From Parcubacteria group bacterium (GTDB lineage Bacteria > Patescibacteriota > Minisyncoccia > Phycocordibacterales > Zambryskibacteraceae), in NCBI GenBank assembly GCA_028286565.1, contig JAQBRH010000004.1:122168-186167 (forward strand): a DNA stretch of 64,000 nucleotides, written 5' to 3'. Numbering within the stretch: the first letter of the stretch is position 1; each line of letters starts with the position of its first letter. The notes below the pieces were generated by a model that saw only the letters and a list, made by a program, of their open reading frames with translations, did no database searches and had not been told where the DNA came from. Made by a program: the position numbers and the translations under genes. Shown in pieces: positions 24,177 to 56,071 of this stretch.

Positions 24177-25367
<1,191 letters not shown>

Positions 25368-38572: not shown

Positions 38573-38634
38573 CCGGCTATTCTACCACGCGGGTCTCCCA
38601 TGCGAGATTGACGCTCTTGTATTATGATGAACCC

Positions 38635-39576: not shown

Positions 39577-39945
39577 ATGGAAGACTGCATCTTTTGTAAA
39601 ATTGTAAGAAAAGAGATCCCCGTTGAGATCGTGTATGAAGATGAGAATTTCGTTGCCTTTCTTGATATTCATCCCGAGTCCCCGGGGCACGTACAAGTGA
39701 TCCCTAAGGCGCATATCCGCTGGGTATGGGACGTCCCAAATGTCGGGGCATATTTTGAAGCAGCAAGGAAGATCGCTATCGCACAGCGCAAAGCATTTAA
39801 CACCGATTGGGTCCTCTCGCGAATTGTCGGAGAGGAAGTCGAGCATGCCCACATATGGGTCTACCCGGATTGGAACGTCGAAGGAGATAAAACCGATCTT
39901 AAGACAAACGCAGAAAAGATCCGAAGTGCTATAGCTTCTCTATAG
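39577..39945 (+). CDS. HIT-family (histidine triad) hydrolase
   Basis: N-terminal CIFCKI and the histidine triad VEHAHIWV. Confidence 0.9.
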   Translation: MEDCIFCKIVRKEIPVEIVYEDENFVAFLDIHPESPGHVQVIPKAHIRWVWDVPNVGAYFEAARKIAIAQRKAFNTDWVLSRIVGEEVEHAHIWVYPDWNVEGDKTDLKTNAEKIRSAIASL

Positions 39946-41067
39946 TTTCTTGAGAGCGTCGATGCCGGGAAGACTGCCCTTGGAGAGGAAATCGAGCATC
40001 GCCCCTCCTCCGGTCGAGATGAAAGAGAACTTCCCAAAGAGCCCGAGCTCTTTGATGGCCGCAAGCGTATCCGCTCCTCCGACGATTACTTCCCTCTCGC
40101 TCTGAGCAAGCATCCGCGCCAGGGCCAAAGTTCCTTCTTTGTATCCCTTTTCATAATTTCCGAGCGGTCCGTTCCAGAGGATGAACTGAGAATCATGGAT
40201 CTTTGTGCGGAGCGCTTCAAGCGTCTTTGGGCCCGCATCCATGATAACGTCGTGCTTTTCCATATCGGCGGGCAAGATCCCGAGGCTTTCTTCTCCGCGT
40301 TTGACGAGGACATCTTCCGGAAGCACAACTTTGCCTGAAGCGAATTTCTCCTTGAGGGCAAAATGTCCTTCCGAGACCAAGGAATCCCCGATCGGCTGCC
40401 CCAGCTCGACGAAGAAGTTGTGCGTCAGGGCTCCTCCGACGAAGATCGAGTCCGCGACGGTGATGAATTTCTCAATAAGAGGGATCTTGGTATCGAACTT
40501 CGCACCGCCGAGGATAAAGAGGAAGGGACGCTTGGGATAAAAGGCCTTTGAAAGCCGCTTCACTTCTTCGGTGAAATGCAGCCCGGCGAATCCCGGCAAC
40601 AGCTTCGGGATGCCGATGATCGACGCATGTTCTCTGTGGGAGGCGGAGAATGCCTCATTTATATATATATCTCCCAGTTCGGAGAGGGCTACGGCAAAAT
40701 TCCTATCATTGTCTTTCTCGCCTGCGTGCTTTCTGAGATTTTCAAGGAGGATAACCTCCCCTTCTTTCATCGAATCGATCTTTTTCTTCACCTCGTCCCC
40801 GACGGTCTCTTTGGAGAAAGAAAGATCGAGAAGCGTGCTCGCGTGCTCGTAGACCGCTTCGAGCGAATCGGTTTCTTTAGATTCGAGATGGGAAATAAGA
40901 ACAACCTTTGCGCCCGCTTTCGAGAGGTGCTCGATCGTCTGAAGCGACTGCCGGATACGATAGTCTTCTCTCACTTCGCCTTGCTGAAGAGGCACATTCC
41001 AATCTACCCGTACGAGTGCTCGTCTGCCTCGAAGATCCTGCGCTTCAAAAAGGGTCTTAAAATCCAT
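39940..41067 (-). CDS. pgk: Phosphoglycerate kinase
   Basis: 375 aa with N- and C-domain PGK signatures (..RVDWNVP.., ..GGGA..). Confidence 0.97.
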   Translation of the reverse strand: MDFKTLFEAQDLRGRRALVRVDWNVPLQQGEVREDYRIRQSLQTIEHLSKAGAKVVLISHLESKETDSLEAVYEHASTLLDLSFSKETVGDEVKKKIDSMKEGEVILLENLRKHAGEKDNDRNFAVALSELGDIYINEAFSASHREHASIIGIPKLLPGFAGLHFTEEVKRLSKAFYPKRPFLFILGGAKFDTKIPLIEKFITVADSIFVGGALTHNFFVELGQPIGDSLVSEGHFALKEKFASGKVVLPEDVLVKRGEESLGILPADMEKHDVIMDAGPKTLEALRTKIHDSQFILWNGPLGNYEKGYKEGTLALARMLAQSEREVIVGGADTLAAIKELGLFGKFSFISTGGGAMLDFLSKGSLPGIDALKKL

Positions 41068-41090: not shown

Positions 41091-41852
41091 CTAGGCGTGG
41101 GTTTCAAGGGCGGCCGCGATCTCGCCGAACATCTTCGGATCAAGCGAGGCGTGTCCCACCAAAAATCCGTTCACTCCGGTCTCGATAAGCGCCTTGGCAT
41201 TATCGCCTTCTACAGATCCTCCATAGAGAATGGGGATCATCTCCGCCGCTTCTCGGCCGAAGATATCCGTCAGCACCTTCTTTATAAAAATAACCATCTG
41301 CGCGAGGTCGGTCGGCTGCATGGCCTCCTTTGAACGCTTGCCTATGGCCCATACCGGCTCGTAGGCGATGATGAGCTTGCCTGCATCATCTTTTCTGCGG
41401 ACGCCTTCCAAGGAAAGCCTCAGTTCCTCGCGAATAAATTCAAAATGCTCGCCTTCCGCATCCCTCTCTTTTTCTCCTACGCACAAAAGCGGCGTGATCC
41501 CCGATCGGAGGGCGCATTTGATCTTGTCCGATGCGACCTCGTTCGTCTCGCCGAGGGCTCTTCGCTCGGAGTGTCCGATGATCGAAAGCTTTACTCCGAA
41601 TGATTTGAGGATATCGGGCGTTGTAGCCCCCGTGTACGTTCCCTCTGGGGCAAAAAAGATGTCTTGAGAGGCAAGATTCCCGAATCCTTTGATCTTTTTT
41701 GACACCGTCTCAAGATACGGAAGCGGAGGCGCGATATACGTAGCAAGCTTTTTGTACTGAGCGGACTTCTTGGCGAGCCCGCTCGCGATCGAAGCGGCCC
41801 GAGCAAGCGAGTCGGGGTGATTCTTCCAGTTGCCTACAAGTATTGGTTTCAT
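41091..41852 (-). CDS. tpiA: Triosephosphate isomerase
   Basis: NWK, IGHSERR and YGGS motifs. Confidence 0.97.
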   Translation of the reverse strand: MKPILVGNWKNHPDSLARAASIASGLAKKSAQYKKLATYIAPPLPYLETVSKKIKGFGNLASQDIFFAPEGTYTGATTPDILKSFGVKLSIIGHSERRALGETNEVASDKIKCALRSGITPLLCVGEKERDAEGEHFEFIREELRLSLEGVRRKDDAGKLIIAYEPVWAIGKRSKEAMQPTDLAQMVIFIKKVLTDIFGREAAEMIPILYGGSVEGDNAKALIETGVNGFLVGHASLDPKMFGEIAAALETHA

Positions 41853-41885: not shown

Positions 41886-43346
41886 TTAATTATTTTCAAC
41901 TTCCTGCCACGAGATGACCTGATATTGGTCGGATGTGAGGGGAAAAGATGGAGGAGGGGCATATAAGAGGTTCGGATCGTAGACAATGGTTCGTGTCTGA
42001 TAGCCCGTACCGTCCGTGTAGGCAAAGCCATAGCGAGTGGCGCTGCCGATCATCCCGTAGAGAGTGAGCGAGGTTCGGGTGTTATACGGAGAACAGCCTG
42101 AACCGTAATAATAACGCCCAACACGGCCATTTTGAGCCATAAGCGCCGCATCGATCCGGAGGGTAGTGAGGCCTTGCATGCCTACGTTTATATCTCCTTG
42201 GGACACAAGCGACAGCACATCGAGGCCGTTATAGTTTGTATAGAGGAGATTGTTGTTCACGGTAATGGACGGGCGTGTCGAGGGATTGTCCGGGAAGCGG
42301 GCGGCTGCCACAGTCACGCGCGCGGTATTTATCTGCCCTTCGACCCAGGCGTTGTCTTCGACAAAGACAATGCCGTTCGCCGGATTCGGATAGTTGCCCA
42401 CAAAGGTGGTGCTGTTCGGCATCCATGTCCCCCATCCCGTCTGCGAAGCTGAATTCGTACAACTGCCGGCGGGGCTGATGAGGTTCGTGACTTTGTAGAC
42501 ATCGAATGTGTCATTTGTTTTGAAAATGATCTTGTATCCCTGCCTTCCCGAACTTGAAAGATATTTCCCCGCGGCCTGCGCGTCCGTCTTCATCTGGGAG
42601 AGATTGGCGGTAATGCCCGTGAAGTCGACCGCAGGAACCGGGAACTGCCTTCCGGCGATAAACACATCGGCGCGGGGAGTTAAGGAGCTCGGAGGAGCTT
42701 CAAGAGGGCGGAAGTTGTCATCTACCCCGGATGCGGGAGGAATATTCTTGTGCGTATGGACGCCGAACTCGACGGCGCCCGTATGATCGGGGTCATTGTA
42801 GGTAGAGAGCGCGCTCGTTACCACATTGTGGGCGATGCCGTCAAAATGGATGCCCCCGTTCGAATGGAGAGGGCCGAACACTTCGGTGTCCTCGCCGATG
42901 CGGAGATCCGAGTTGCCTACGACCGCGAACTTGGCAAAAGAAGGAATGGCAAATTTTGCGATAATGGTTCTCTTGGCTGAACTATCGAGCGCGGACACCC
43001 CTACGGATCTGATAGTGACGAGCGTAGAGCCGAGAAGCGGAGGCGTAATGGTCAGGGTGAATGTACCCAACAGATCTCCGCTCTTATCATAAAAATTGTG
43101 GACCGACGGAGTTGAACTGCCCGTACCGTCCGTATAATCGGTCTTTGCGTGCGCGAGGTGCCAGCGATAATACTCGATCCCCGCTTCCGCCGCCTGGAAA
43201 GCCTGCTCTCGGAGGATGCCGATCCTTCCGGCCTTCATGTTGGTGTTCGCAAAGGTGATAAGCCCGCTGATCACGATCACCGCAATGCCCGCAAATACGA
43301 GCATCTGGATGAGAAAATATCCCTTTGAATATGTATGTTTTTTCAT
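41886..43346 (-). CDS. Type IV pilin-like / minor pseudopilin protein (degenerate prepilin N-terminus KGYFLIQ)
   Basis: N-terminal hydrophobic helix after a Gly-aromatic motif that lacks the Glu+5 residue; 486-aa Thr/Gly/Asn-rich extracellular body. Located directly downstream of two canonical prepilin genes. Confidence 0.5.
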   Translation of the reverse strand: MKKHTYSKGYFLIQMLVFAGIAVIVISGLITFANTNMKAGRIGILREQAFQAAEAGIEYYRWHLAHAKTDYTDGTGSSTPSVHNFYDKSGDLLGTFTLTITPPLLGSTLVTIRSVGVSALDSSAKRTIIAKFAIPSFAKFAVVGNSDLRIGEDTEVFGPLHSNGGIHFDGIAHNVVTSALSTYNDPDHTGAVEFGVHTHKNIPPASGVDDNFRPLEAPPSSLTPRADVFIAGRQFPVPAVDFTGITANLSQMKTDAQAAGKYLSSSGRQGYKIIFKTNDTFDVYKVTNLISPAGSCTNSASQTGWGTWMPNSTTFVGNYPNPANGIVFVEDNAWVEGQINTARVTVAAARFPDNPSTRPSITVNNNLLYTNYNGLDVLSLVSQGDINVGMQGLTTLRIDAALMAQNGRVGRYYYGSGCSPYNTRTSLTLYGMIGSATRYGFAYTDGTGYQTRTIVYDPNLLYAPPPSFPLTSDQYQVISWQEVENN

Positions 43347-43960
43347 AGGTTATCTTTAATGTTGCGAGGCGCAACTTCCGTCACGATCGAGATGGTATTC
43401 GGAGAGCGGTTTGGGTCCTTATCGATCAGGACGGTCACCTTTATTAAGCGGACCGCCGACGGAGTAACCGGGATGGACAGCGGGGTCGTAGTGCCCGCAT
43501 ACGTCGAGTCGTAATAATCGAACATCGGGGTCGAGGTGCCGTTCACGATCTCCGTCACAAGCGTGGTGACGGTCTCGGAATTGAGGTTGTATGAAGATGG
43601 ATTTCCGGACGGAGAGACAACCCCTTTTTTCAAAGTGCGGCTGCCTTGATCCAAAAAATACCGGATCCGATCCATCGATCCGTTGCCGTTGATGTCCGCG
43701 TAGAAGATGAGCGTACTCGTCGCCACCGTATCCAGAGGATATGAGCCGAGGGCCGAAGGAGCGATAGTGCGCAGCTCAGCCACCATGATCTTCAAGATCT
43801 TCCGGCCTTCGAGCTGGGCGGTAAGGCTGTTATACACGCCTGAATTCAGGATAAAAATATTTCGTATAAATTGGGATACGGCAAACCCAATGACGATCAT
43901 GATCCCGATAGAGATAATAAGTTCCGCGAGGGTAAATCCTTTTGTGGGCGAATGCGACAT
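43343..43960 (-). CDS. Type IV prepilin-like protein (canonical KGFTLAELII N-terminus)
   Basis: Prepilin peptidase motif G-FTLAE-L followed by a hydrophobic helix. Start placed at MSHSPTKGFTLAEL. Confidence 0.7.
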   Translation of the reverse strand: MSHSPTKGFTLAELIISIGIMIVIGFAVSQFIRNIFILNSGVYNSLTAQLEGRKILKIMVAELRTIAPSALGSYPLDTVATSTLIFYADINGNGSMDRIRYFLDQGSRTLKKGVVSPSGNPSSYNLNSETVTTLVTEIVNGTSTPMFDYYDSTYAGTTTPLSIPVTPSAVRLIKVTVLIDKDPNRSPNTISIVTEVAPRNIKDNL

Positions 43961-43962
43961 GG

Positions 43963-45732
43963 TTATGGGGCGAGGATCACTGAGAGCGACTGCCAGGCGG
44001 AACTCACGCTCACAGAACCCGTATATGTAGTATAGCCCGGCTCCGAGACGGTAACGGAGTACGTTCCCGAAGAAAGTCCGGAGAATGCGACTTGTCCCGG
44101 AGGCACGCATCCGGAAGTAAATGTGAACGACACATCGGACAGATTCGGGGTAGCGGTGCTCGAGGCGGTGCTGAGGAATAATTTGTACTTGGCATAACGG
44201 GAATTTGCGTGCCGGGTCGAGAGATCGCGCTCTGAAAGCGTATAGTAGCTGCCCCCGGTGCCGTCCGGACCGACGAACGCATACGCTCCCCCGTCGTTGT
44301 TTGAAGCGAATTGGAACTTAACGCTATTCGGCCCCGCAGCGGCGGGCTCGGAAGTAGGATTCCAGCTTATTTCTTGGAAGGTCGAGGTCGTCCCCGTGTC
44401 GAAAGCTGAGGAGATCAATTCCCCGCTCGGAGCATAACTGCCAAAGACTTGAGAGATCTTTACGTCCCCTGCCGGGCTGCCGGTCGATACGCTGAGTGAG
44501 CTTTGATACTTGGTCGGATCGCTTGAGGTGGCTTGACCGGATCCTCCTGACCAATCACTTTGAGTAATGGAACCGCGGCCGGTAAGCAGGGTTTGCGGCG
44601 AACCGTTAGAGATGGTCACTGACGCTCCTGAGATCGGCAGACCGGTGGAAGAATCAGAAACGGAGACAAGGAGCGTATTCGGATTTTTTGGTCCAAATAC
44701 AAGCTGCAGGGGTTGATTTGAGTTCGGCAGCACCGCGAGTGGCAAGAGCGGATTGGTGCCGATAAGCTCCCAAGTCGCGCTCGTATTGGTGAACGAATAT
44801 GTATCCCACTCGAGATTTGAGATGGTTTTCTGTCCCGCACTGTCTGTCGTGAGATTTTGATTATATTTATACACCGAAGGAGTGCCTATAAGCTTTGAAC
44901 CCTTCATGGTAAAAGGAATGGAGGAGACCGGGGAACAGGAAGAATCGACGGTGGAAACATTGAGAGTGCTTGTTTTATCTATGGCGAAACTCACCTGTGT
45001 CACTTGCTGAAGAGCGACCGTCGCATGGGGCTTGGTCGGATTCGAATTCCCCGCTCCCCCAAGAGGATATGTTTGATCGGTCGAATACCCGGGCTTTGAG
45101 ACGCTGATGCGATAACTCGAAGCAAACGGAGGAACATCGACGATCTGAAGTATCCCCTGAGCATTCGTGGTGTCATCGATCGTTAGGGTCGGCGTGGTCG
45201 ATGAGTTTGCAATGTGCACGTCCGCATCAGAAACAGGCTGGCCGTTCGCATCGAATGTCTGAACGAAGAGAGCCCCGTTCGTCGAAGCCGTTTCAAGGTT
45301 CCGCGGCGAGACCCGCCCAGTAAAGATGACCGGTGCAAAGTTTTTGCACGTCCCGCACAGCACTTCCACCTCAACGAGCTTGTAGTCGGCAGGAGACGTA
45401 TCGTTTGGAGTAGCGCCGATCCGGCCGTCAAAGGGGTCGTCGACGTTTCTGATCGTGGTCGTCACCTGAAAGCTGATGTTGTCGCGGACAATGGTTTGCA
45501 CATGCGGAACGATGCCGTTCGGGATGCCGCCCGGCTCCCCGACGTTCGCATACGGCAGATTTCGGACGACTTCAAATTCTTCGTTCGCAAGATCGGACGC
45601 TAGGATCTTAAAATGCGAGGACGAGACCGTCGCATAGACCGAGGCATAGCTTTGATAGATAGCCATGGCGACGATAACGAATATCGTCACCCCGACCAGG
45701 ATCTCGACCAGAGTAAAGCCTCGTTGTTTCAT
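43963..45732 (-). CDS. Large type IV prepilin-like protein (589 aa; RGFTLVEIL N-terminus) with a long beta-rich extracellular region
   Basis: Canonical prepilin N-terminus, then ~550 aa rich in S/T/G/N. Start placed at MKQRGFTLVEIL. Confidence 0.7.
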   Translation of the reverse strand: MKQRGFTLVEILVGVTIFVIVAMAIYQSYASVYATVSSSHFKILASDLANEEFEVVRNLPYANVGEPGGIPNGIVPHVQTIVRDNISFQVTTTIRNVDDPFDGRIGATPNDTSPADYKLVEVEVLCGTCKNFAPVIFTGRVSPRNLETASTNGALFVQTFDANGQPVSDADVHIANSSTTPTLTIDDTTNAQGILQIVDVPPFASSYRISVSKPGYSTDQTYPLGGAGNSNPTKPHATVALQQVTQVSFAIDKTSTLNVSTVDSSCSPVSSIPFTMKGSKLIGTPSVYKYNQNLTTDSAGQKTISNLEWDTYSFTNTSATWELIGTNPLLPLAVLPNSNQPLQLVFGPKNPNTLLVSVSDSSTGLPISGASVTISNGSPQTLLTGRGSITQSDWSGGSGQATSSDPTKYQSSLSVSTGSPAGDVKISQVFGSYAPSGELISSAFDTGTTSTFQEISWNPTSEPAAAGPNSVKFQFASNNDGGAYAFVGPDGTGGSYYTLSERDLSTRHANSRYAKYKLFLSTASSTATPNLSDVSFTFTSGCVPPGQVAFSGLSSGTYSVTVSEPGYTTYTGSVSVSSAWQSLSVILAP

Positions 45733-45733
45733 A

Positions 45734-46948
45734 TTAAATATTATTGACCAGAGAATACGTAGGCGCGAGCATCGAGATGGCAAAGACCCCGACGCCCGCC
45801 CCGATGATGATCATGAGCACGGGCTCGATGATGGTCGAAAGGTCCTTGGTCTTTTCCTCAACCTCCGCTTCGTAGTAGATGGCAACTTGGAGAAGCATAT
45901 CCGAGATCTTGCCCGTTTCTTCTCCGACGGCGATCATCTCCCCGACGAATGGAGGGTACAGGCCCTCATATTCCATGAACACCGAAGACATCGGCTCTCC
46001 TTTTTGGATGACCGTGCGGGCCACGTCGAGGGTTTTTTTGTACAAAGAGTTCTGCACCACATCGATCGTGACGCCGAGAGCCACCACCACGTCTACTCCG
46101 GAAGAAAGGAGCGAGGAAAGAGTGCGCGCGGCGCGAGCGCTTTGGACCTCCTTCACGATCTCTCCGATGACCGGGATGCGGATAGAAACGATATCCATGA
46201 CCCGCTGGCCGGGAGCGCTCTTTAGCGCGAAGGTCCCGCCGACGATAAGCCCGAGAAGCGCGCCCAGCACGATAAAGGTATGGTTAACCATGAAATCGCT
46301 CGCGGCGATGATCACCCGAGTAGAGAGAGGGAGCTCTGCGCCGATACCCTTGAAGGTAGCCGTCAGGGTAGGCACCATGTACACGAGCATTAGGATGGCG
46401 ATGACGATCATGGCCGAGAGGATGACCGCCGGATAGATAAGCGCACCCTTGACCTTTTTGGTCAAAGCAAAGGATTTATCCATCTGGCTGGCGACGATCT
46501 CAAGCGAGTTCGAGAGGTTCCCCGACTCTTCACCGGCCTTCACCATCGAGACGAAGAGGGACGAGAAGATATGAGGGCGCTTTCGCATGGAGTCCGAGAG
46601 AGTTTCTCCCTTGCTGACGTCGGAGGCAAGATCCGAGAGGAGCTGCTTCAAGTTCTTGTTCTTGGCCTGCTTTTCCATCACGGCAAGCGCTCGGGTCACC
46701 GAAAGACCGGCCTTGATCATGGTGCCCAGATTCCTGGCAAGGAGGATCTTGTCATGGGTCTTGATGCCTTTAAAGAGACTGTTGAAAATACCCCCGAGAG
46801 AAATCCCCGGGCGCGTTTCTTTGACCTCGATAACTGTCCCGCCTTCTTCTCTGATGGCCGCATAGAGCTCCACTCGGCTTGCGGCTTCATGGGTACCCTG
46901 ATATGACTTCCCTTCTTTATCTTTGGCTGTGTATGAATATATGGTCAT
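45734..46948 (-). CDS. pilC: Type IV pilus assembly platform protein PilC / GspF family
   Basis: Two repeated T2SS-F domains with 3 TM segments (..GETLSDSM.., ..GEPMSSVF..). Confidence 0.93.
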   Translation of the reverse strand: MTIYSYTAKDKEGKSYQGTHEAASRVELYAAIREEGGTVIEVKETRPGISLGGIFNSLFKGIKTHDKILLARNLGTMIKAGLSVTRALAVMEKQAKNKNLKQLLSDLASDVSKGETLSDSMRKRPHIFSSLFVSMVKAGEESGNLSNSLEIVASQMDKSFALTKKVKGALIYPAVILSAMIVIAILMLVYMVPTLTATFKGIGAELPLSTRVIIAASDFMVNHTFIVLGALLGLIVGGTFALKSAPGQRVMDIVSIRIPVIGEIVKEVQSARAARTLSSLLSSGVDVVVALGVTIDVVQNSLYKKTLDVARTVIQKGEPMSSVFMEYEGLYPPFVGEMIAVGEETGKISDMLLQVAIYYEAEVEEKTKDLSTIIEPVLMIIIGAGVGVFAISMLAPTYSLVNNI

Positions 46949-46966
46949 GTGTGTGATGAGCTCGAA

Positions 46967-48718
46967 CTATTCAGATATGACGCGGAGCACTTCTTCGATC
47001 GTGGTGACGCCCTCAACCGCTTTGAACACCCCGTCCTCGATCATAGTCATCATACCGTCTTTCTTGGCTTGCTCTTCTATCTCATGGATAGATGCGCCCT
47101 TGATCACAAGATTACGAATGGTTTCGGTTACTTTCAAGGCTTCATGGATGCCGATCCGGCCCTGGTAGCCGTCTTCGCTGTCCGCGCTCGCTTTTGGCCT
47201 CCAAAACGGGACTTTGTCCCAATCGGCTCCCTTCTCAACGAGCTTCTCTTCTTTCATGAGCGCCATCATGCGATCAAGATCGACGATCTTTCCGAGGGAA
47301 GCGATCTCTTCTTTATTCAAAAAATATTTTTCTTTGTTCTCTCCGATCTTCCTGATCAGACGCTGGGCGATCACCACATTCAAGGTCGACACGAGGAGGA
47401 ACGGCTCAACCTTCATGTCGACGAGTCGAGGGATGGCTCCGGCGGCGGAGTTGGTGTGAAGGGTCGAGAGCACCAAGTGCCCGGTCAGGGCCGCGTTCAC
47501 CGAGAGCGCGGCGGTCTCATTGTCTCGGATCTCTCCCACCATGATGATGTCCGGGTCCTGGCGAACGAGCGTACGCAACCCTTGGGCAAAGCTGAATCCG
47601 ATCTCCGGACGCACTTGGGTCTGGTTGATCCGCTTCATTTGGTATTCGATCGGATCTTCAATGGTAGAAATGTTGACGTCCGGCGTGTTCAACACATCGA
47701 GCACTGTGTAGAGGGTCGTCGTTTTACCCGAGCCGGTCGGACCGGTCGTGAGGATAAGTCCGGTGGTCGACTTCATGGCTTTGTGGATCACTTCGAGCGC
47801 ATAGCCGTGGAATCCGAGGCTCTCGAGGGTAAATCCGGATACGGATTCTCGGAGGAGGCGCATGACGGTCTTTTCTCCGTAGTAGACCGGGAGCGTCGAA
47901 ACGCGGAACGAGACCTTTTCTCCGTTCATGTCTATTTTGAATCGCCCGTCCTGAGGCACGCGCTTTTCATCAAGCTTCAGATTTGAAAGCACCTTGATGC
48001 GCGCGGTGATGCCCGAAGCGGTGTTCTTTGGCAGAACCATGGCGTCGTGGAGAAGCCCGTCGATCCTATAGCGGACCAAAACCTGCAGCTCTTCGGGCTC
48101 TATATGGATATCGGATGCGTCCTGGATGATGGCGTGCTTCAAGAGCGTGTCGACGATGCGGACGACGGGCACGTCTTCGGCAAGCTTTTTAAGATCCTTT
48201 TCATCCGCCTCTTCCCCTTCCTTCTCGGATACGGCGCGGAGAGAGCCCGCTTCCTTTTGGATAATGTCGCCGAACTCCGCCTTCAGGCTCTTTTGATACA
48301 GGAGAAGCGCCCACTTCATGGATTCGTTGTCGGTTAGGCGGGGCAAAATTCGGAGACCCACCTTTTTCTTGACGAAGTCTATAGCCGTCAGGTCTTCGGT
48401 ATCGAGCATGGCCACTTCGAGCGTCGCTTCGCCTTTTTTAAAGGCTACGATGTTGTGGTTTCGGGCGATCGGCTCAGGGATGAGAGAAAGGACTCCGAAA
48501 TCGAGCTTCTGGTTTTTAAGGTCAACGAAAGGAATGCCGAGGATATAGGCCTGCATCCGGCGGAGATCATCGTCGGTAATAATGCCTTTTTGGGCCAAGA
48601 GCTTCCCTATGTTCGTTTTCTTCTCGAGAGCCTCTTTGGCCGCTTCTTCTATCTCTTTCTTCGAGACAAGTCCCGAATCAAGAAGAAAATTTTTTAACTG
48701 AGTCTCATCAATGTGCAT
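46967..48718 (-). CDS. pilB: Type IV pilus assembly ATPase PilB / GspE family
   Basis: Walker A GPTGSGKTTTLY, Asp box, Walker B and His box. Start taken at MHIDETQL (ATG 48718) because the track ORF extends further upstream. Confidence 0.95.
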   Translation of the reverse strand: MHIDETQLKNFLLDSGLVSKKEIEEAAKEALEKKTNIGKLLAQKGIITDDDLRRMQAYILGIPFVDLKNQKLDFGVLSLIPEPIARNHNIVAFKKGEATLEVAMLDTEDLTAIDFVKKKVGLRILPRLTDNESMKWALLLYQKSLKAEFGDIIQKEAGSLRAVSEKEGEEADEKDLKKLAEDVPVVRIVDTLLKHAIIQDASDIHIEPEELQVLVRYRIDGLLHDAMVLPKNTASGITARIKVLSNLKLDEKRVPQDGRFKIDMNGEKVSFRVSTLPVYYGEKTVMRLLRESVSGFTLESLGFHGYALEVIHKAMKSTTGLILTTGPTGSGKTTTLYTVLDVLNTPDVNISTIEDPIEYQMKRINQTQVRPEIGFSFAQGLRTLVRQDPDIIMVGEIRDNETAALSVNAALTGHLVLSTLHTNSAAGAIPRLVDMKVEPFLLVSTLNVVIAQRLIRKIGENKEKYFLNKEEIASLGKIVDLDRMMALMKEEKLVEKGADWDKVPFWRPKASADSEDGYQGRIGIHEALKVTETIRNLVIKGASIHEIEEQAKKDGMMTMIEDGVFKAVEGVTTIEEVLRVISE

Positions 48719-48806
48719 TGAAAATATTTTATCACGATTATGGATATTAAAATCAACAAAAGAAAAAGGCCCACGCAACTTCGCGTGGGTCCGTACATCA
48801 TTTACT

Positions 48807-50123
48807 TCATGGAGCAACCGGCTCATATACATCCACCGGCTCTTCAGCACTCGCTCCGAACTTCTTTACCCGCTCACCCTGGTGAGCTTGGGGAAGCGAG
48901 AGACGTGTGTTGAGCGTACGCTCCGCAGCTGCGACAGCATCCATGAGCTGGATGTATGCCACGTCTTCCAGACTGAAGGTGCTGCTGGACCACATCACCG
49001 AGGCCCATGAGTTGGTGTGCCCAAAGCTCAGCACATGGCCGATTTCATGGCGAACGGTGCCGCCGTTATGGAAGTCGTCCCCCGTACGGGCGTTGACCGA
49101 TCCATAACTGAAATCACGGCCAGATATGGCGCCGAAACTTCCTCCTGCATGCGTTCCACCTGCGATTTTCAGCTCGATTGATCCGATAGGACCCGTGCAA
49201 GCTGTCTGGGAACTCGAGGCGGCAAACACCACCCTGCCCACAATCTGTTGAATGACTGCGGCAAAGGACCAGAAGCTTGCCGAATCATCGGCAGACATGG
49301 TTCCGAGAGCCGTTGTGCAAGCAAGAGTGGGTATGGCGCGGGGGTAACTGCCTACCGTGTATTTCCACGGCTTTCCTACCTGCCGACCACGTGTATAGAA
49401 CCCAGAAACTTCTCCCGATCCAGCTGGCGGAGCATAGGCGGCCTCAAGATCAACTGTGATCTTGGCGCCACCGTAGAGATCTCCCTTGATCGTCCACACC
49501 GCCGGAATACCGACAATGTTGAACGAAGAGAAGTACCGCTTTGGCACTCGGCCGAAGAAATCCTTCATCCTGGCACTTGGATCGATCGCCCGGAACACAA
49601 CAGTGTCTCCGAGAGCGAACTTGGTCGGAAGCGAGAAGGTACAATCGTTATGCACCTGAGTCGCATCTTCCTTGTTCTCTCCGGCAAAGACCATCGTACC
49701 CGTCGGGCATGATGAGCCGTCTGCCATTGCAATCTGCCCAATGATCAGAGGAGCGGCAACTACCACTTCAACGGAATCGACTTTCGTGACACCGCTCGCC
49801 GTGACTGCCGCCTTGATCACATGCTTCCCGATGGAAGCAGTGACACCTGAGCATAGCGTGACGGGGATACCGTCAACTGTGCACGAGATCTGAACATTCG
49901 ATAGCGTACTCGGAGAGTACCCTACCGTTACAGGGATCGTGGCGTTCGGCCACGTTGCCTGGGTCGGGTTCACTACGGCTGGCGCCGAGATGGAAGCTGA
50001 CACGAGGGCTTGTGTAGCCGTTGTGTCAACCGGATCGATACGAGGCTTGGTAGCCCCGTCCCCGCCGCAAGCGACGAGTGCGGCCGCCACAGCGGTCGCG
50101 AGACGCGCGAATGTCGGACGCAT
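48807..50123 (-). CDS. Predicted lipoprotein zinc metallopeptidase (metzincin HExxHxxGxxH)
   Basis: Signal peptide with lipobox LVAC-GG and catalytic HEIGHVLSFGH. The gene is visibly GC-richer than the flanking pilus genes. Confidence 0.7.
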   Translation of the reverse strand: MRPTFARLATAVAAALVACGGDGATKPRIDPVDTTATQALVSASISAPAVVNPTQATWPNATIPVTVGYSPSTLSNVQISCTVDGIPVTLCSGVTASIGKHVIKAAVTASGVTKVDSVEVVVAAPLIIGQIAMADGSSCPTGTMVFAGENKEDATQVHNDCTFSLPTKFALGDTVVFRAIDPSARMKDFFGRVPKRYFSSFNIVGIPAVWTIKGDLYGGAKITVDLEAAYAPPAGSGEVSGFYTRGRQVGKPWKYTVGSYPRAIPTLACTTALGTMSADDSASFWSFAAVIQQIVGRVVFAASSSQTACTGPIGSIELKIAGGTHAGGSFGAISGRDFSYGSVNARTGDDFHNGGTVRHEIGHVLSFGHTNSWASVMWSSSTFSLEDVAYIQLMDAVAAAERTLNTRLSLPQAHQGERVKKFGASAEEPVDVYEPVAP

Positions 50124-50253
50124 GGAACACCCTCCTTATGAGTTTATGAAGCAAACGATGACGAAGATCAGTGGGATACAATAATCCCAAGCCTAAGTCA
50201 ATAGTACTTTATATATAGGAATGTGTCAAGACTCTTACAACTCAAGTTGTGGA

Positions 50254-50733
50254 TTACTGGCGGACGACAAAACTGAGGAGAACGTTCATTCTTTGATCAT
50301 TTGGTGTGATGGTGATGGTAAGTTCCCCATTACCTTTTGTCGCAATATAGGCGGTATGCGAAACCGACTTGTCACCTAAGGTTATTTTATACCCCTTGTC
50401 TTTAAGATAGTTTGCGTAAATAACCGAGAGTTCTTCCTGCTGTTTCGCCGAAAAATAGCTTACGTTCGAAACCGTTGCCTTTCTATCGGGATACGAAAGG
50501 GTTTCAGACTGAGTGACATTCTCTATCTCTATAGGAATATCACTTGGTAAACCCGCAGGAAGCTTGCTTTGTCCTTGGACCGATGCGACATCCACGGGAT
50601 CGTAGATTACATTCTCGCTTGAGAACTTTGTTGCTGGCGTGCTTGATCTATATTTCATGAACAAGAGAACTCCGGCGACGACCAGAACCGCTACCAAGAG
50701 AACGGGCAGGATGGGTTTAGTTTTGTTTTCCAT
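50254..50733 (-). CDS. Membrane-anchored hypothetical protein (159 aa)
   Basis: N-terminal TM (ILPVLLVAVLVVAGVLLF) followed by a soluble domain; no motifs. Confidence 0.5.
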   Translation of the reverse strand: MENKTKPILPVLLVAVLVVAGVLLFMKYRSSTPATKFSSENVIYDPVDVASVQGQSKLPAGLPSDIPIEIENVTQSETLSYPDRKATVSNVSYFSAKQQEELSVIYANYLKDKGYKITLGDKSVSHTAYIATKGNGELTITITPNDQRMNVLLSFVVRQ

Positions 50734-50738
50734 ATATG

Positions 50739-53060
50739 TTAGATTTCTTGGAATCGAGGATTAAGGTTCACTTGGATGGTCCCTGCCGGACAGGTCCCTC
50801 GTGATCCGTTCCTGTCCGTCACAGTTGCTTGAGCGGTCTTTAAACCGGAAGTTGTGTATTGAACACCGAACGAGGCAGTTGTCGGAGACGGGCTCGGAAG
50901 GCTCGGTCCGGACCATGCATACGTATACGGGGCAACTCCTGTGCCGGAGACGGAGGCGTTCCACGTCACCGTATTCCCAACGATGGTAGTACCGGAAGGA
51001 TTAGAGGTACAGGAGACTGAGATGGCCGCAGAGGGAGTAACGGTCAGGGTGAAAGAAGTTGTCTTGTTGGGAGTACCGGCGGAAGACCCTGTTACTGTGA
51101 TCGGATAGTTCCCCGTTGCCGTTCCTGCCGCGATAGACATGGTGATATTCGAACTACACGTCGGAGTTGCGGGGAAACAGCTCGAAGGAGTGGCGGTGCT
51201 TCCCGGAGGCATGCCCGATGCAGACAGGGTCACCGGTTGAGAACTGCCCGAGATCAATGTCTCAGTAATGGTGATCGCCTGCGCACCTCCTTGAGGTATA
51301 GAGACACTTCCCGGGCTTGATAGAGAGTAGTTGAATGAAGGGCCGGAAGCAGCGTAGGTAAGAGTGTATGTACCGCTTTGTCCCGGAGAAAGAGGCATTG
51401 AAGCTCCTCCGGAATTAACGCTGTTTGTTACCGTAGGGCCGGTATACCCGGACACTGCAGCAGGAGAGATCACGTATGTAGACCCGCCCGCGGCCGGAGT
51501 GACTGTGTACGATCCGCTTGTTCCGGAACCGGATACCCCCCCGGGAGCAACCGTCCACGATGTAGCCACATTCGAAGAGACGTTTATGGCCGCAGTGGTA
51601 GGAGCAGAAACGTTGACCGTCGCGCTTGCGGACGGATTCGATCCGCCGACACTTGATATACAGCTGATGGTGTACGTGGTGTTCGAGACCGGAGAGACAG
51701 CCTTGTTTCCGTTCGTCGCAGAAGAGGAATTCCAGTTTGCGCTTGGTGCAGTGCCTGAGCACGAGCTCACGTTAGTTCCGGACCAGGTCAGCGTAGCGGA
51801 ATTCCCGCTTATGATCGTTTGAGAAGCCGGGGTCAAGGTAACCGAAGCGACCGGATTGACGGTCACCACGGCCGAGGCGGTATAGGATATATTGTTAGTA
51901 CCAGTACACGTCTTTGAATACGACGTATTCGATCCGGGAGAGACGTCGGTGAATCCGTTCGTAGCAGTACCGCTCCAGAAGTTAGCGTCGCACGAGCTCA
52001 TACCTGTTGTAGCCCATGTCACTCTTGAAATTCCGCCCGAAGAAATAGTAGGAGGATTTGCAGTAACACTTATCGTCGGAGTGGAGGCACAGCTTGATGA
52101 ATTATTTCCTTGGTATGTACAGACGGGGCCGCCGTAAGATGGATCGCCGTTAACACTGACGTTCGTCCAGGGACTGCAGTTATTCGCTTCATCGGACTCA
52201 GAAACAACCCCTGTACTGTCCGCACATGATCGAACCGAATATACATACGGCTGATTTGTAACGACGGTATATGTCGAGGGTGAAGTTACAGAGGTTGATT
52301 GGGAAGTATTAAGGATAGGCGTCGGAGCATCCCAGAGAGTACTTATCGTTCCGGAACCATTTGAACCTGACGCAACCTGGAAATTGGTGTATGAAGCTGC
52401 GGCGTCTGCAGCACCCGCGTTCGAGACCTGAGCAACAAACGTATTAGCTTGGCCGGAAGTAACCGGGCTCGGGGCGCTGACTGAAGTTGCAATTAAATCT
52501 GGAGATTGAACACGCTGGCAGTTAAGAATAAAGGAAGATGAACCACCTGGATATATTAATTGAGAATTTGGAGTTGCCCCTAAGTAATTCCATCCTGCCG
52601 GCACAGAAGCAGAGATACTTACGTTAGTGCCTCCCGCAGCAGGATTGAATGTAAAGCCACCATCATCTACTCCGCCTTGTGAAAGCCCTGAGCCCGTAGC
52701 CATCCATGAAGTACCGAAGGGACAAGTGCCCTGGGCGCTGTTTGCATATATTGCCACTGTTGCAGGAGGAGGAGATGCCGGCGGGGAGAACCATATAATT
52801 TGATAATGAAAATCAGTACCGTTGTTCCACAACTGACCGTCTTGAGGATTAGATCCAAAGTCTTCGCAATATCCCGTATAAGTTGTAGTGGGGTCAGAGT
52901 AGAGCGTATCGCACGGTGGATAACCTGGCCAAGGAAAAGGATTAGGATTTTGCGCATGTACGGAAGATCGCACAAATCCGAGGCCTCCGATAAGCAAAAC
53001 CCCAAAGATAGCTACAGGCAGACAAATATTAAAAAACTTGGAACTAGACATTTTTTTCAT
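50739..53060 (-). CDS. Large secreted Ser/Thr/Gly-rich surface protein (773 aa), possible adhesin with repeated beta-sandwich modules
   Basis: N-terminal signal anchor, extreme S/T/G/N bias, and recurring modules (..TLTWSGTNVSSCSGTAPS.., ..VTWNASVSGTGVAPYTYAWSGPS..). Confidence 0.6.
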   Translation of the reverse strand: MKKMSSSKFFNICLPVAIFGVLLIGGLGFVRSSVHAQNPNPFPWPGYPPCDTLYSDPTTTYTGYCEDFGSNPQDGQLWNNGTDFHYQIIWFSPPASPPPATVAIYANSAQGTCPFGTSWMATGSGLSQGGVDDGGFTFNPAAGGTNVSISASVPAGWNYLGATPNSQLIYPGGSSSFILNCQRVQSPDLIATSVSAPSPVTSGQANTFVAQVSNAGAADAAASYTNFQVASGSNGSGTISTLWDAPTPILNTSQSTSVTSPSTYTVVTNQPYVYSVRSCADSTGVVSESDEANNCSPWTNVSVNGDPSYGGPVCTYQGNNSSSCASTPTISVTANPPTISSGGISRVTWATTGMSSCDANFWSGTATNGFTDVSPGSNTSYSKTCTGTNNISYTASAVVTVNPVASVTLTPASQTIISGNSATLTWSGTNVSSCSGTAPSANWNSSSATNGNKAVSPVSNTTYTISCISSVGGSNPSASATVNVSAPTTAAINVSSNVATSWTVAPGGVSGSGTSGSYTVTPAAGGSTYVISPAAVSGYTGPTVTNSVNSGGASMPLSPGQSGTYTLTYAASGPSFNYSLSSPGSVSIPQGGAQAITITETLISGSSQPVTLSASGMPPGSTATPSSCFPATPTCSSNITMSIAAGTATGNYPITVTGSSAGTPNKTTSFTLTVTPSAAISVSCTSNPSGTTIVGNTVTWNASVSGTGVAPYTYAWSGPSLPSPSPTTASFGVQYTTSGLKTAQATVTDRNGSRGTCPAGTIQVNLNPRFQEI

Positions 53061-55401: not shown

Positions 55402-55860
55402 TCAACCTTGAATATATAAATACCAACGAGTATTTTTCTTCCCATTTATATAAAAGTCATACCACTGCCTCATGAATTTGGCCTTGGTCATGCGTCGGAA
55501 ACCTCCAAGCTCCGGATCCATCATCCAGAGAGTCCTGCCTGTCATCTTGTATACAACCGAATAATGGCCGTCTGCAGGCGCCCCATAGTCAGACCACCAA
55601 TTGACGAGCACCGGGGTGTCCGAATCCACGAGAGTTTTCAATTCATTCCAAGTGCCCTTGTCCTTTGTTTTGACCTTAAATCCGAGCTTTTTGAGGCCTT
55701 TGGCAAGAGCTTCGGGCTCCGTCCCATTCTCAGTCGTGGTACCACAAAGACGGCCAAGTTCCGGCTCGGTCATATTTTTGCCATAGTATTGGACCAAAGA
55801 CACAAGGCTCGCCGGCCCACAGAAGCTCGCGCTTTGGCGGATAGGTTTGAGGCTGATCAT
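55402..55860 (-). CDS. Peptidase C39-like cysteine protease domain protein (standalone)
   Basis: QSASFCGPASLVSLVQYYG resembles the C39 catalytic Q...CGxAxL..YYG block, and a downstream His (..ADGHYSVVY..) is consistent with the Cys/His dyad. Start placed at MISLKP to avoid overlap with the tRNA. Confidence 0.65.
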   Translation of the reverse strand: MISLKPIRQSASFCGPASLVSLVQYYGKNMTEPELGRLCGTTTENGTEPEALAKGLKKLGFKVKTKDKGTWNELKTLVDSDTPVLVNWWSDYGAPADGHYSVVYKMTGRTLWMMDPELGGFRRMTKAKFMRQWYDFYINGKKNTRWYLYIQG

Positions 55861-55872
55861 AGAGTATCGAAT

Positions 55873-55946
55873 GGTGCGGGATGGGGGAATCGAACTCCCG
55901 ACCACAGTTTGGAAAACTGTTGTTTTACCACTAAACTAATCCCGCA
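55873..55946 (-). tRNA. tRNA-Gly (anticodon UCC), CCA encoded
   Basis: Manual fold: acceptor gcgggat/atcccgc, anticodon stem acagt/actgt with loop tttccaa, T-loop ttcgatt, 3' ACCA. Confidence 0.8.
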
Positions 55947-56060: not shown

Positions 56061-56071
56061 ATTATTCACTG

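Follow-up and report, generated by a model that had tools for sequence, protein, structure and literature searches.

A conserved type IV pilus operon with a predicted ComZ-like tip pilin and a separate, variable surface island in a soil Parcubacteria genome

Several type IV filament systems are known to carry large and unusual minor pilins, and these are the closest described counterparts of the locus reported here. ComZ of Thermus has a Gly at position 5, is missed by PilFind, and binds both the adjacent pilin PilA2 and DNA (PMC6561018). The same kind of solenoid insertion is present in the cyanobacterial PilX, a member of core minor-pilin sets, for which plug and adhesin roles have been proposed (bioRxiv 10.64898/2026.02.12.705559). 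Saccharibacteria possess two large tip pilins, PilX1 and PilX2, without PilD signals (PMC11623550). Modular type IV pilins carry bulky accessory domains, whose role in other systems is adhesion, and CPR examples of this design already appear in the survey that described them (PMC8179133). CPR bacteria have neither secretins nor an outer membrane, and their genomes typically hold further pilin genes elsewhere (PMC6744442).

Here we describe a locus in a 64-kb stretch of DNA (the window) from the small-genome MAG of a soil Parcubacteria (Patescibacteria). The ORF list of the window contains eight ORFs at 53060-41886, all on the minus strand and located as first described (Table 1). The stretch from tpiA to comEC is conserved context outside the pilus operon proper. 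The original prediction was right that this small-genome member of the Patescibacteria has type IV filament machinery, as Pfam, NCBIfam and homologue searches agree, and also that ComEC is near the pilus genes, with RecJ close by. It had further read the eight genes as one pilus locus with divergent pilins, a protease and a Ser/Thr-rich protein as candidates for host interaction. With moderate confidence we favor instead two independent units, namely a vertically inherited, constrained pilus operon (48718..41886) and a flexible surface island (53060..48807).

Table 1. Features of the pilus operon, the surface island and the downstream backbone (positions in the window).
Feature	Position	Strand	Description
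CARDB S/T-rich protein	50739..53060	-	773 aa; ORF and Pfam; opens the variable surface island
159-aa protein	50254..50733	-	ORF; one N-terminal transmembrane helix and ~120-aa extracytoplasmic domain
Promoter-like site TTGACA-17-TACTAT	50201..50229	-	In the 130-bp gap before the metzincin gene; weak evidence only
Metzincin-like predicted lipoprotein	48807..50123	-	438 aa; lipobox LVA/C and C-terminal zinc site
Intrinsic terminator	48770..48789	-	Between metzincin stop codon and pilB start
PilB/GspE-family assembly ATPase	46967..48718	-	583 aa from conserved ATG; MshEN and T2SSE
PilC/GspF-family polytopic platform protein	45734..46948	-	404 aa; Pfam T2SSF, two repeats
Modular type IV prepilin	43963..45732	-	589 aa; class III signal; N_methyl and TIGR02532
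Canonical type IV prepilin	43343..43960	-	205 aa; N-terminus TKG/FTLAE
Non-canonical pilin, ComZ/PilX/GspK class	41886..43346	-	486 aa; N-terminus SKG/YFLIQ
tpiA	41091..41852	-	Downstream backbone; ORF and Pfam
pgk	39940..41067	-	Downstream backbone; ORF and Pfam
HIT	39577..39945	+	Downstream backbone; ORF and Pfam
LTD-domain protein	38536..39552	+	Downstream backbone; ORF and Pfam
recJ	36908..38572	-	Downstream backbone; ORF and Pfam
comEC core	34964..36544	-	Downstream backbone; ORF and Pfam

The first unit, pilB-pilC followed by the genes of the 589-, 205- and 486-aa pilins, is an ordinary and very strongly conserved syntenic core operon of Parcubacteria. Pfam detects the domains MshEN (E = 1.6e-9) and T2SSE (E = 1.5e-119) in PilB; although the ORF opens at 48850, the gene itself begins with the ATG at 48718, which is conserved in the relative L007. 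PilC matches T2SSF (E = 1.1e-54). Judged by profile scores, NCBIfam is unable to separate a type IV pilus from a type II secretion motor at PilB (GspE 518 bits, PilB 515 bits, both under their equivalog cut-offs), and the GspF and PilC models likewise match PilC under their cut-offs. The order pilB-pilC-~600-205-~485-tpiA-pgk is common to L004, L005, and L006 and is seen in Zambryskibacteria and other Parcubacteria, and the downstream backbone has the same order in L004, L005, and L006. In L002 the pilin trio is kept together while pilB-pilC is absent beside it, and therefore the trio is the conserved unit. Amino acid identity to L004/L006 is 72/74% for PilB, 63/62% for the 486-aa protein, 56/57% for PilC, 55/55% for the 589-aa protein, 51/53% for RecJ, 47/50% for the 205-aa protein, 43/45% for Pgk, and 44/43% for Tpi; in this comparison PilC, RecJ, Tpi, and Pgk all fall below the 486-aa protein, and the 589-aa protein is on par with or above them. 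The 589-aa protein has more than 2,100 significant homologues and the 486-aa protein more than 3,400, the best 120 listed for each being 53–76% identical over full length, and the 205-aa protein has 1,093 clusters at 50% identity with E <= 1e-3. The pilins, originally proposed to be divergent, are thus neither divergent nor lineage-specific but ordinary pilus components with homologues throughout the lineage, and the conservation of the two large ones is not what host-specific adhesins under diversifying selection would be expected to show.

The genes of the operon are packed closely, with a gap of 1 nt between the pilC stop and the start of the 589-aa gene, 2 nt between the latter and the 205-aa gene, and a 4-nt overlap (ATGA) between the 205-aa stop and the 486-aa start. 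Such tight coupling of the pilin genes suggests a tip or priming complex. The 589-aa protein, as oversized as had been claimed, begins with MKQRG/FTLVE and scores above the cut-offs of both N_methyl and TIGR02532. An alpha-1 helix (residues 8–58) and a small four-stranded pilin sheet (78–141) are followed by a beta-sandwich chain of transthyretin/CarboxypepD_reg, CnaB/SpaA-like, and PEGA domains, and the structure model (pLDDT 82.8) matches transthyretin-like and CnaB/SpaA stalk domains. As modeled, it is a modular pilin with a chain of transthyretin/CnaB-like domains, an architecture that fits the modular-pilin concept (PMC8179133). N_methyl is found in 46 of 49 members of the 205-aa family; for the globular part no solved pilin is alike by sequence, the PDB profile matches spanning the N-terminal helix only, and a GspJ/PilW-like role is our guess.

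The 486-aa protein is a degenerate prepilin without Glu5, as originally noticed, with Gly at -1 and Gln at +5. Its model comprises an alpha-1 helix (8–66), four strands (82–133), a large triangular beta-solenoid (~142–455), and a last strand (476–483), so that the solenoid is putatively inserted ahead of the last pilin strand. Residues 164–240 have pLDDT <40, and a His/Asp-rich block at 149–249 is highly conserved and unmodelled. Similarity of the solenoid extends to tapirins and to ice-binding adhesin-like domains. A search of the PDB with the family profile found neither ComZ nor any other pilin by sequence, and in the model the resemblance to ComZ is structural only; we predict that the 486-aa protein belongs to the pilus tip, as a counterpart of Thermus ComZ. 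The three translationally coupled pilins would form a core minor-pilin set, priming assembly first and occupying the filament tip afterwards. Its cap would be the 486-aa protein, which has a pilin module without Glu5 as in GspK, PilX, and ComZ and a solenoid like those of the latter two; the 205-aa and 589-aa prepilins would stack under it through their alpha-1 helices, and the 589-aa subunit would supply stalk domains, a chain of transthyretin/CnaB-like modules. The ligand of this tip is most likely something invariant because the conservation is extreme, and DNA would be the leading candidate in view of the ComZ analogy and of recJ and comEC close by.

The modeled fold fits a glycan or surface ligand equally well. 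The same tip complex could then bear a 486-aa glycan or cell-surface adhesin of the tapirin or ice-binding type, or a structural plug, in place of a DNA receptor, which we consider possible although less likely. The roles proposed for the cyanobacterial solenoids point in this direction (bioRxiv 10.64898/2026.02.12.705559), as does the lack of sequence similarity to ComZ, by which the DNA-binding lysines of ComZ are not mappable onto the 486-aa protein; however, 60–74% conservation across lineages with presumably different hosts favors a universal ligand or an internal structural role, and the linkage to recJ and comEC also weighs against it.

Genes for a major pilin, PilD, PilT, or PilM/N/O were not found within the 64-kb window, and the filament subunit could therefore be the 205-aa protein. 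A self-contained comG-like competence pseudopilus, that is a short DNA-uptake filament with the 205-aa protein as major and the two large proteins only as minor pilins, would suit this finding, and the window has no further prepilin motif G[FY][TS]xx[EQ] elsewhere. In layout the operon is similar to comGA-comGB-comGC..G, its tip pilin is ComZ-like in fold, and recJ and comEC lie 3–7 kb downstream with synteny conserved in L006. We nevertheless regard this reading as doubtful. The ComGA and ComGB models match PilB and PilC at 252 and 149 bits, under their cut-offs and lower than GspE/PilB; the coupling of the 205-aa gene on both sides suits equimolar subunits and poorly suits one needed in large excess; the trio stands apart from pilB-pilC in L002; and CPR genomes typically have more pilin genes elsewhere (PMC6744442), 64 kb being covered here. 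Under the favored reading of a minor-pilin set, genes for the major pilin, PilD, PilM/N/O, and PilT would lie at other sites in the genome.

The second unit, the surface island, consists of the CARDB protein, the 159-aa membrane protein, and the metzincin-like lipoprotein. A terminator of its own, with an 8-bp stem containing 6 G-C pairs and then a T-run, closes the island, which is a separate transcription unit from the pilB operon. In L007 the hairpin recurs, altered by compensatory changes (CCCACGC/GCGTGGG versus CCCGCAC/GTGCGGG), ahead of the same pilB start. Promoter-like sites in the region are no more numerous than in shuffled sequence. Between the window and L007, Xth is 93% and UPF0102 84% identical, whereas the CARDB, 159-aa, and metzincin proteins reach 46%, 49%, and 37%, and a third relative carries other cargo in the same slot. 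The 773-aa CARDB protein is secreted, Cys-rich, and almost uncharged (S+T 30.8%, K+R 1.8%, 17 Cys) and has an N-terminal signal-like hydrophobic helix, a CARDB domain at residues 186–295 (Pfam E = 1.7e-11, above cut-off), and further beta-rich repeats; it shares the C-terminus ...NP(R/Q)F(Q/R)EI with its L007 ortholog, and its gene has a GC3 of 0.48 against 0.61–0.71 in core genes. The 159-aa protein gave no match in a Pfam search; its gene is the only island gene retained in all three relatives examined, and the orthologs in L007 and L015 are 48–49% identical and occupy the same slot after xth.

The metzincin-like protein does contain the HEIGHVLSFGH motif that had been reported, along with a lipobox, LVAC. 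Its zinc site reads H359-E-xx-H363-xx-S-x-G-H369 with a Met-turn at M377, and H359, E360, H363, G368, H369, and M377 are invariant in an alignment of 16 sequences, and protease activity is predicted; all aligned homologues keep the Gly of the consensus HExxHxxGxxH. Matrixin/Reprolysin and matrilysin profiles gave sub-threshold matches only. The family is very rare, with 16 homologues in 5.8 billion (5.8e9) proteins; most are unnamed, and those with a taxon are one Gemmatimonadaceae, one unclassified ‘bacterium’, and two Patescibacteria. The two named high-identity matches outside Patescibacteria are thus from Gemmatimonadota or unclassified bacteria, the two such contigs inspected have ~69% GC and shared local synteny, and more distant relatives (26–28%) occur in Longimicrobiaceae. 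Homologues outside Patescibacteria lack the N-terminal ~100 residues, and in a neighbor-joining tree the Parcubacteria copies are not nested inside the other clade. The gene is indeed GC-richer in total (0.575 versus a window mean of 0.525), but the excess lies at codon position 2 (0.54) because of an Ala/Gly/Thr/Pro-rich composition, and GC3 (0.60) is not above that of core genes, so composition alone does not indicate the suspected foreign origin. It is the phyletic distribution that suggests transfer, and the gene was probably exchanged horizontally with Gemmatimonadota, an unrelated phylum of soil.

Could all eight genes nevertheless form a single host-attachment locus, with the oversized pilins, the protease, and the S/T-rich protein as lineage-specific host-interaction factors? 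The genes are adjacent on one strand, large accessory domains of pilins serve adhesion in other systems (PMC8179133; PMC11623550), and the island genes diverge as fast as expected of surface proteins exposed to host or phage. This is improbable, since a strong terminator separates the island from pilB, Zambryskibacteria and other more distant relatives have nusA in place of the island upstream of pilB, the slot carries other cargo in the third relative, and the pilin part is contradicted by proteins that are among the most conserved of the region over a wide range of Parcubacteria. What stands of the host-interaction idea concerns the protease and the S/T-rich protein, for which it is reasonable and strengthened by their very fast divergence. 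A T2SS-like pseudopilus exporting proteins such as the neighboring metzincin is very unlikely, for although the best NCBIfam matches of the ATPase and platform are GspE and GspF and the tip pilin resembles GspK, all scores are under the equivalog cut-offs with PilB close to GspE, CPR bacteria are without secretins and outer membrane (PMC6744442), and the metzincin carries a lipoprotein signal peptide and belongs to a transcription unit of its own.

Compared with Matrixin (M10) and other metzincins, the island protein shares the extended zinc motif of three His and a catalytic Glu and a Met-turn eight residues past the third His, and its best, weak profile matches (matrilysin and Peptidase_M10, none statistically significant) fall at the active site; it differs in the Ser at the consensus Gly, in ~230 residues of unassigned fold ahead of the motif, and in being a predicted lipoprotein of a family with only 16 known members. 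The 589-aa protein, like PilB/PilC of Streptococcus sanguinis and CofB, joins a canonical prepilin module to bulky non-pilus domains, but these are a chain of stalk domains plus PEGA and not a single vWA or lectin effector, and its family is unusually conserved (53–76% among the best 120 listed). Canonical core sets comprise four minor pilins, whereas the operon here has three. Compared with the GspI-GspJ-GspK pseudopilus tip of type II secretion and with FimU-PilV-PilW-PilX of T4aP, it is without a fourth, GspH/FimU-like member, and the domain inserted in its cap is a solenoid, unlike the alpha-helical one of GspK. PilX1 and PilX2 of Saccharibacteria are likewise large minor pilins of Patescibacteria with accessory domains and a proposed tip location (PMC11623550), although these domains are a jelly-roll and a beta-propeller and not a solenoid. 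The 486-aa protein differs from ComZ of Thermus thermophilus (PDB 6QVI) in that no sequence similarity is detectable, its His/Asp-rich conserved block has no identifiable counterpart, and DNA binding is putative by analogy; it also differs from both ComZ and PilX in belonging to a monoderm-like CPR bacterium without secretin and in having two pilin partners, one being the 589-aa multi-domain pilin, and not three or four. With these two proteins it nonetheless shares a hydrophobic pilin helix without Glu5 that standard pilin signatures miss, a GspK-like pilin sheet, a large triangular solenoid resembling ice-binding proteins, and a gene immediately after other pilin genes.

All eight minus-strand open reading frames that the original prediction placed at 53060 to 41886 are present as described, and exact database matches to proteins of the window carry the locus tags JWN89_540, JWN89_542, and JWN89_545. 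An exact-sequence search with PilC adds a single 3.8-kb Logan contig, from which no further genomic context is gained. Five of them form a pilus operon and three form a surface island directly upstream, as listed in the table.

Features of the window and protein identities to relatives (L004, a Zambryskibacteria contig with the pilin trio; L006, a second contig with the trio; L007, the same as L012, a second Patescibacteria MAG); slashes in N-termini stand between positions -1 and +1
Feature	Position	Strand	Evidence	Identity to L004, L006	Identity to L007
tRNA cluster	55402-57439	both	minus Gly-TCC, Pro-TGG, Pro-CGG; plus Gly-GCC, Arg-TCG
350-aa ORF	56187..57239		no Pfam match
167-aa ORF	55905..55402		C39-like cysteine peptidase
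UPF0102					84%
Xth					93%
773-aa protein		minus	30.8% Ser+Thr, 4.5% charged, 17 Cys, signal-like N-terminus, CARDB domain		46%
159-aa protein		minus	single N-terminal membrane helix		49%
438-aa predicted lipoprotein (metzincin-like)		minus	HEIGHVLSFGH		37%
Intrinsic terminator	48789-48770	minus	18 nt past metzincin stop; 8-bp stem, 6 G-C pairs, T-run
PilB/GspE-family hexameric ATPase	ATG at 48718	minus	Pfam T2SSE E = 1.5e-119 + MshEN	72%, 74%
PilC/GspF-family platform protein		minus	Pfam T2SSF E = 1.1e-54, two repeats	56%, 57%
589-aa prepilin		minus	N-terminus MKQRG/FTLVE	55%, 55%
205-aa prepilin		minus	N-terminus TKG/FTLAE	47%, 50%
486-aa protein	41886-43346	minus	N-terminus ..SKG/YFLIQ	63%, 62%
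Tpi				44%, 43%
Pgk				43%, 45%
HIT
338-aa LTD protein	38536-39552	plus	lamin-tail domain
RecJ				51%, 53%
ComEC, apparently split	33077-36544	minus
ComEC core, 526 aa	36544..34964	minus	DUF4131 + Competence
ORF between ComEC parts	34414..35010	plus
Lactamase_B protein, 285 aa	33934..33077	minus	own N-terminal membrane helix
fusA (EF-G)	30441..28273
609-aa ORF	26371-28200	minus	no Pfam match, GC3 0.52
tuf (EF-Tu)	25367..24177

The filament is assigned here to no single subtype (T4P, Com, or T2SS), because the ATPase scores under both NCBIfam equivalog cut-offs, PilB and GspE. Both the 589-aa and the 205-aa protein carry the class III signal (Gly at -1, a hydrophobic residue at +1, Glu at +5, and a hydrophobic alpha-1N), and the prepilin motif is retained in 46-50 of about 50 homologues in each family. 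The genes are tightly packed: pilC and the 589-aa gene lie 1 nt apart, the 589-aa and 205-aa genes 2 nt apart, and the 205-aa and 486-aa genes overlap in ATGA, which points to coupled and about equimolar synthesis of the pilins. A motif scan of the 64-kb window found no prepilin motif beyond the pilins of the operon, and neither PilD, PilM/N/O, PilT, nor a major pilin is encoded in it. Downstream follow tpiA, pgk, the HIT gene, the gene of the LTD-domain protein, recJ, and comEC.

For the 589-aa pilin, a database search at E ≤ 0.001 counted more than 2,143 homologues, of which the best 120 are 53-76% identical and nearly all cover 98-100% of its length; the 486-aa protein has more than 3,429 homologues, the best 120 being 60-74% identical. 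Both sets derive from MAGs of Parcubacteria, Zambryskibacteria, and Minisyncoccia. The gene order is shared by long contigs from three relatives (L004, L005, and L006), with a divergent nusA followed by pilB-pilC-~600-205-~485-tpiA-pgk-HIT-recJ. On a fourth contig, L002, the three pilin genes still form a cluster although pilB-pilC is missing beside them; pilM, pilO, and a second pilB lie about 7 kb away. The trio is therefore regarded as the conserved unit; no major pilin is present near the pilM/N/O genes of that contig. The original prediction took these pilins for divergent. On the contrary, the exposed, pilin-like 486-aa protein is more conserved than the two glycolytic enzymes Pgk and Tpi in the comparison with L004 and L006, which argues against host-specific adhesins under diversifying selection, and close homologues of the components occur across the lineage, the very outcome that the original prediction had named as its refutation. 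The pilus operon is thus ordinary, highly conserved core equipment. About 5 kb upstream of pilB on L004 (MHWT01000026.1, 278-1743) we also observed a bAvd accessory gene with a reverse transcriptase (RVT_1), a pair typical of a diversity-generating retroelement.

The 589-aa protein is a modular type IV pilin, that is, a prepilin module joined to domains that are not T4P-specific. Its model (pLDDT 82.8) consists of a canonical pilin helix, a small four-stranded sheet, and then a string of beta-sandwich domains, and the model and its fold matches agree with the Pfam domains (N_methyl, CarboxypepD_reg, PEGA, and SpaA-like). It is modular in the sense of Raynaud et al., whose list already includes CPR examples (PMC8179133). 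The 205-aa protein has relatives in 1,093 clusters (50% identity) at E ≤ 1e-3, and N_methyl is found in 46 of 49 relatives, so that by its sequence signature it is a true prepilin. Its assignment by sequence to GspJ, PilW, or another minor pilin was tried and rejected, as profiles built from 5 and from 49 members match PDB entries only at the N-terminal helices of major pilins; against Pfam they match N_methyl alone, and the globular part is without a sequence match. Among its relatives, P0329, P0345, and P0395 form the C-terminal part of proteins of 626-769 aa. In these, the ~600-aa and 205-aa pilins have probably been joined by fusion or by gene mis-calls, which fits a tight coupling of the two genes.

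The named members of the 486-aa family all lack Pfam domains and are annotated as "hypothetical protein" throughout, apart from a single evident mis-call, "phage protein U". An AlphaFold2 model from a 51-sequence alignment (mean pLDDT 72.9, and 82-96 across residues 250-440) predicts that residues 8-66 form an alpha-helix and residues 82-133 four strands; a large beta-rich domain (about 142-455) and a final strand (476-483) follow. The predicted structure contains a GspK-like pilin beta-sheet and a triangular beta-solenoid akin to ice-binding proteins; the order of four strands, solenoid, and final strand with invariant W480 and E482, as read from secondary structure, would fit a solenoid placed between the penultimate and last strands of the sheet. 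In the family, Gly at -1 is found in 50 of 51 members, and position +5 is Gln in 45 and Glu in none. A residue other than Glu at +5 is a hallmark of cap subunits such as GspK. The competence-pilus tip pilin ComZ of Thermus thermophilus has a pilin domain resembling that of GspK, with a solenoid of the ice-binding-protein kind inserted ahead of the last strand; it has Gly at position 5 and is missed by PilFind (PMC6561018). The same architecture is reported for the cyanobacterial PilX core minor pilins (2026 preprint, bioRxiv 10.64898/2026.02.12.705559). A profile of 51 family members matches no PDB pilin at E ≤ 10, and it gave no sequence link of the family to any solved structure. Since this leaves no sequence link to ComZ, we file the 486-aa protein as a structural member of the ComZ class, not as a proven homologue; on the model it would be an analogue or a very remote homologue.

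From the motifs, predicted folds, synteny, gene coupling, and conservation, we propose that the trio would form a set of core minor pilins, priming assembly on PilC and finally sitting at the filament tip. The 486-aa solenoid pilin lacking Glu5 would be the cap, with the 589-aa and 205-aa pilins beneath it, the former contributing a stalk of Ig-like domains. ComZ binds its adjacent pilin PilA2 and dsDNA (PMC6561018); in comparison, the gene of the 486-aa protein adjoins that of the 205-aa pilin with a start/stop overlap, which makes this pilin a candidate partner. Three points together suggest an invariant ligand, with DNA as the favored candidate: conservation is extreme, ComZ offers an analogy, and the neighborhood with recJ and comEC is conserved. 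Glycan binding or a "plug" role would agree with the fold just as well, as the solenoid matches tapirin and ice-binding-protein folds and the study of cyanobacterial PilX is in line with such a role (bioRxiv 10.64898/2026.02.12.705559). The main structural rival of the tip complex is a self-contained, comG-like competence pseudopilus with the 205-aa protein as major subunit, which agrees with the lack of a major pilin, PilD, PilT, and PilM/N/O in the window.

In the proposed cap, residues 149-249 hold the densest run of conserved residues of the family, HSNGGIRFDGxAHN...YDDPDH..EFGVHTH, in which H161, H173, D185, D187, H188, H197, and H199 are close to invariant among aligned homologues. This His/Asp-rich block coincides with a stretch modeled at pLDDT 31-38, and a profile of the segment has no match in the PDB or Pfam. 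The block could serve as a metal site, as a loop for partner binding, or in catalysis, and it may even form a metal-dependent site at the pilus tip that binds or cleaves DNA. We know of no pilin for which such a metal-dependent DNA site or DNA cleavage at the tip has been described. Parcubacteria cannot synthesize nucleotides and are believed to rely on pili and ComEC to obtain DNA. The most far-reaching reading, in which the 486-aa protein is the receptor of an essential nucleotide-scavenging or DNA-uptake pilus with a metal-dependent DNA site and, secondarily, the metzincin marks Gemmatimonadota as host, seems to us improbable; its receptor role would, if true, explain how an exposed tip protein came to be conserved above glycolytic enzymes.

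Two genes near the operon deserve a separate record. ComEC usually ends in a C-terminal metallo-beta-lactamase domain, which the ComEC core of the window lacks; the separate Lactamase_B protein lies about 1 kb downstream, and two ORFs, one encoded in the opposite orientation, separate it from the core. The LTD gene, located between recJ and the HIT gene, runs antiparallel to recJ and overlaps the start of that gene with its 5' end. LTD proteins are frequently extracellular, and DNA binding is known for some.

The original prediction counted the protease and the Ser/Thr-rich protein as part of the pilus locus, a view that did not hold. The terminator separates them from pilB, which starts about 50 nt beyond it; their genes diverge fast; and in more distant relatives nusA stands upstream of pilB in their stead, so that they form a separate, unrelated hypervariable island. 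In L007 the genes for UPF0102 and xth are likewise followed by a CARDB protein (817 aa), a 153-aa protein, a 433-aa metzincin, the same terminator, and the same start of pilB. The stems differ by compensatory substitutions, CCCACGC/GCGTGGG in the window and CCCGCAC/GTGCGGG in L007 (~6925-6945), which supports a functional terminator. At the DNA level the flanks of the two are about 77% identical, while the island is mostly unalignable. In a third relative, L015 (Ga0172379_10000927, 2757-8656), the slot after UPF0102 and xth retains a homologue of the 159-aa protein (48% identical), and the genes of the CARDB protein and the metzincin are replaced by those of an S9 prolyl oligopeptidase and of a radical-SAM/SPASM enzyme. 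The small membrane protein thus recurs beside different peptidases. A metagenome scan with the 159-aa protein returned one locus. The island is a flexible surface-protein slot that abuts the pilus operon in one genus.

The 773-aa protein has no match in a PDB search. Its C-terminus (50739-50780, minus strand), ...VQINLNPRFQEI, is nearly identical to that of the L007 ortholog (4985-5020), ...VQINFNPQFREI, although the two are 46% identical overall. Judged from sequence, this end may be a sorting or anchoring signal; it contains neither an LPXTG motif nor a C-terminal membrane helix. Mobile-element boundaries were also sought around the island and rejected, as no convincing direct or inverted repeats are present and the tRNA cluster is non-adjacent, 2.8 kb off. 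This cluster flanks the 350-aa ORF, and the 167-aa ORF overlaps tRNA-Gly at its annotated start.

The metzincin-like lipoprotein belongs to a very small family, with 16 matches among 5.8 billion proteins. Its N-terminus, MRPTFARLATAVAAALVA followed by Cys, fits the lipobox [LVI][ASTVI][GAS]C that closes a signal peptide, and the Cys is conserved family-wide at that position. The aligned family has H359, E360, H363, H369, and the Met-turn M377 without exception, and M377 lies eight residues past H369, the same spacing as in aligned matrilysin. The Gly of the consensus HExxHxxGxxH/D is kept by all other aligned members and is Ser in the window copy. Matches to curated families are sub-threshold (Peptidase_M10 with E = 0.057 in the window copy and E = 0.0042 in P0253; matrilysin PDB profile E = 0.05), and the similarity to matrixins is restricted to the active site.

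Thirteen of the 16 members are about 340-367 aa long and mutually 72-87% identical. The taxon names are few, namely one Gemmatimonadaceae, one unclassified "bacterium", and the two Patescibacteria copies. The two non-Patescibacteria contigs inspected have about 69% GC and a common local synteny (MFS transporter, metzincin gene, and 223-aa gene), and remote relatives at 26-28% identity occur in Longimicrobiaceae, also of the phylum Gemmatimonadota. A profile scan of the genome collection, which under-samples the family, gave at least three loci. Both Parcubacteria copies are extended at the N-terminus by about 100 residues. Either copy shares more identity with the other clade (39-50%) than the two share with each other (36%), a sign of long, fast branches. 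From these relationships the rare gene in the island was probably exchanged horizontally between the phyla. Transfer from Gemmatimonadota to Parcubacteria appears the more likely direction, since the family spans two Gemmatimonadota families and one Parcubacteria genus only; a neighbor-joining tree did not settle the direction. The gene may mark Gemmatimonadota as the host of this genus.

The higher GC content originally noted for the metzincin gene stands (total 0.575; window mean 52.5%), but the foreign origin read from its composition was rejected: the excess is in GC2 (0.54), GC3 (0.60) is not raised and lies at or below that of core genes, and the moderately high codon-usage distance (0.175) is matched by EF-G and EF-Tu. 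In the two neighboring island genes GC3 is low, at 0.48. Between the genes of the two elongation factors we observed the 609-aa ORF, whose GC3 is lower, in a stretch that normally lies inside the str operon.

The island illustrates how a fixed pilus operon can adjoin a hypervariable surface locus, and its rare gene common to Gemmatimonadota and Parcubacteria might hint at soil partnerships. On the side of the pilus, the trio conserved across Parcubacteria may represent a complex for the tip or for priming, in which the 486-aa protein is a concrete candidate for a DNA or host receptor; its very high conservation also makes it a candidate probe or target for the whole class. By structural assignment, more than 3,400 "hypothetical", Pfam-less proteins can now be annotated as putative tip pilins of the ComZ/PilX class. 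Large tip pilins without a PilD signal have already been described in Saccharibacteria, which are also Patescibacteria (PMC11623550), and the tip-pilin concept is therefore not new. Nothing here overturns current views, as CPR type IV pili, modular pilins, and solenoid tip pilins were all described previously, and what the pilus part adds to these known systems is the model-based structural annotation of a very large "hypothetical" family.
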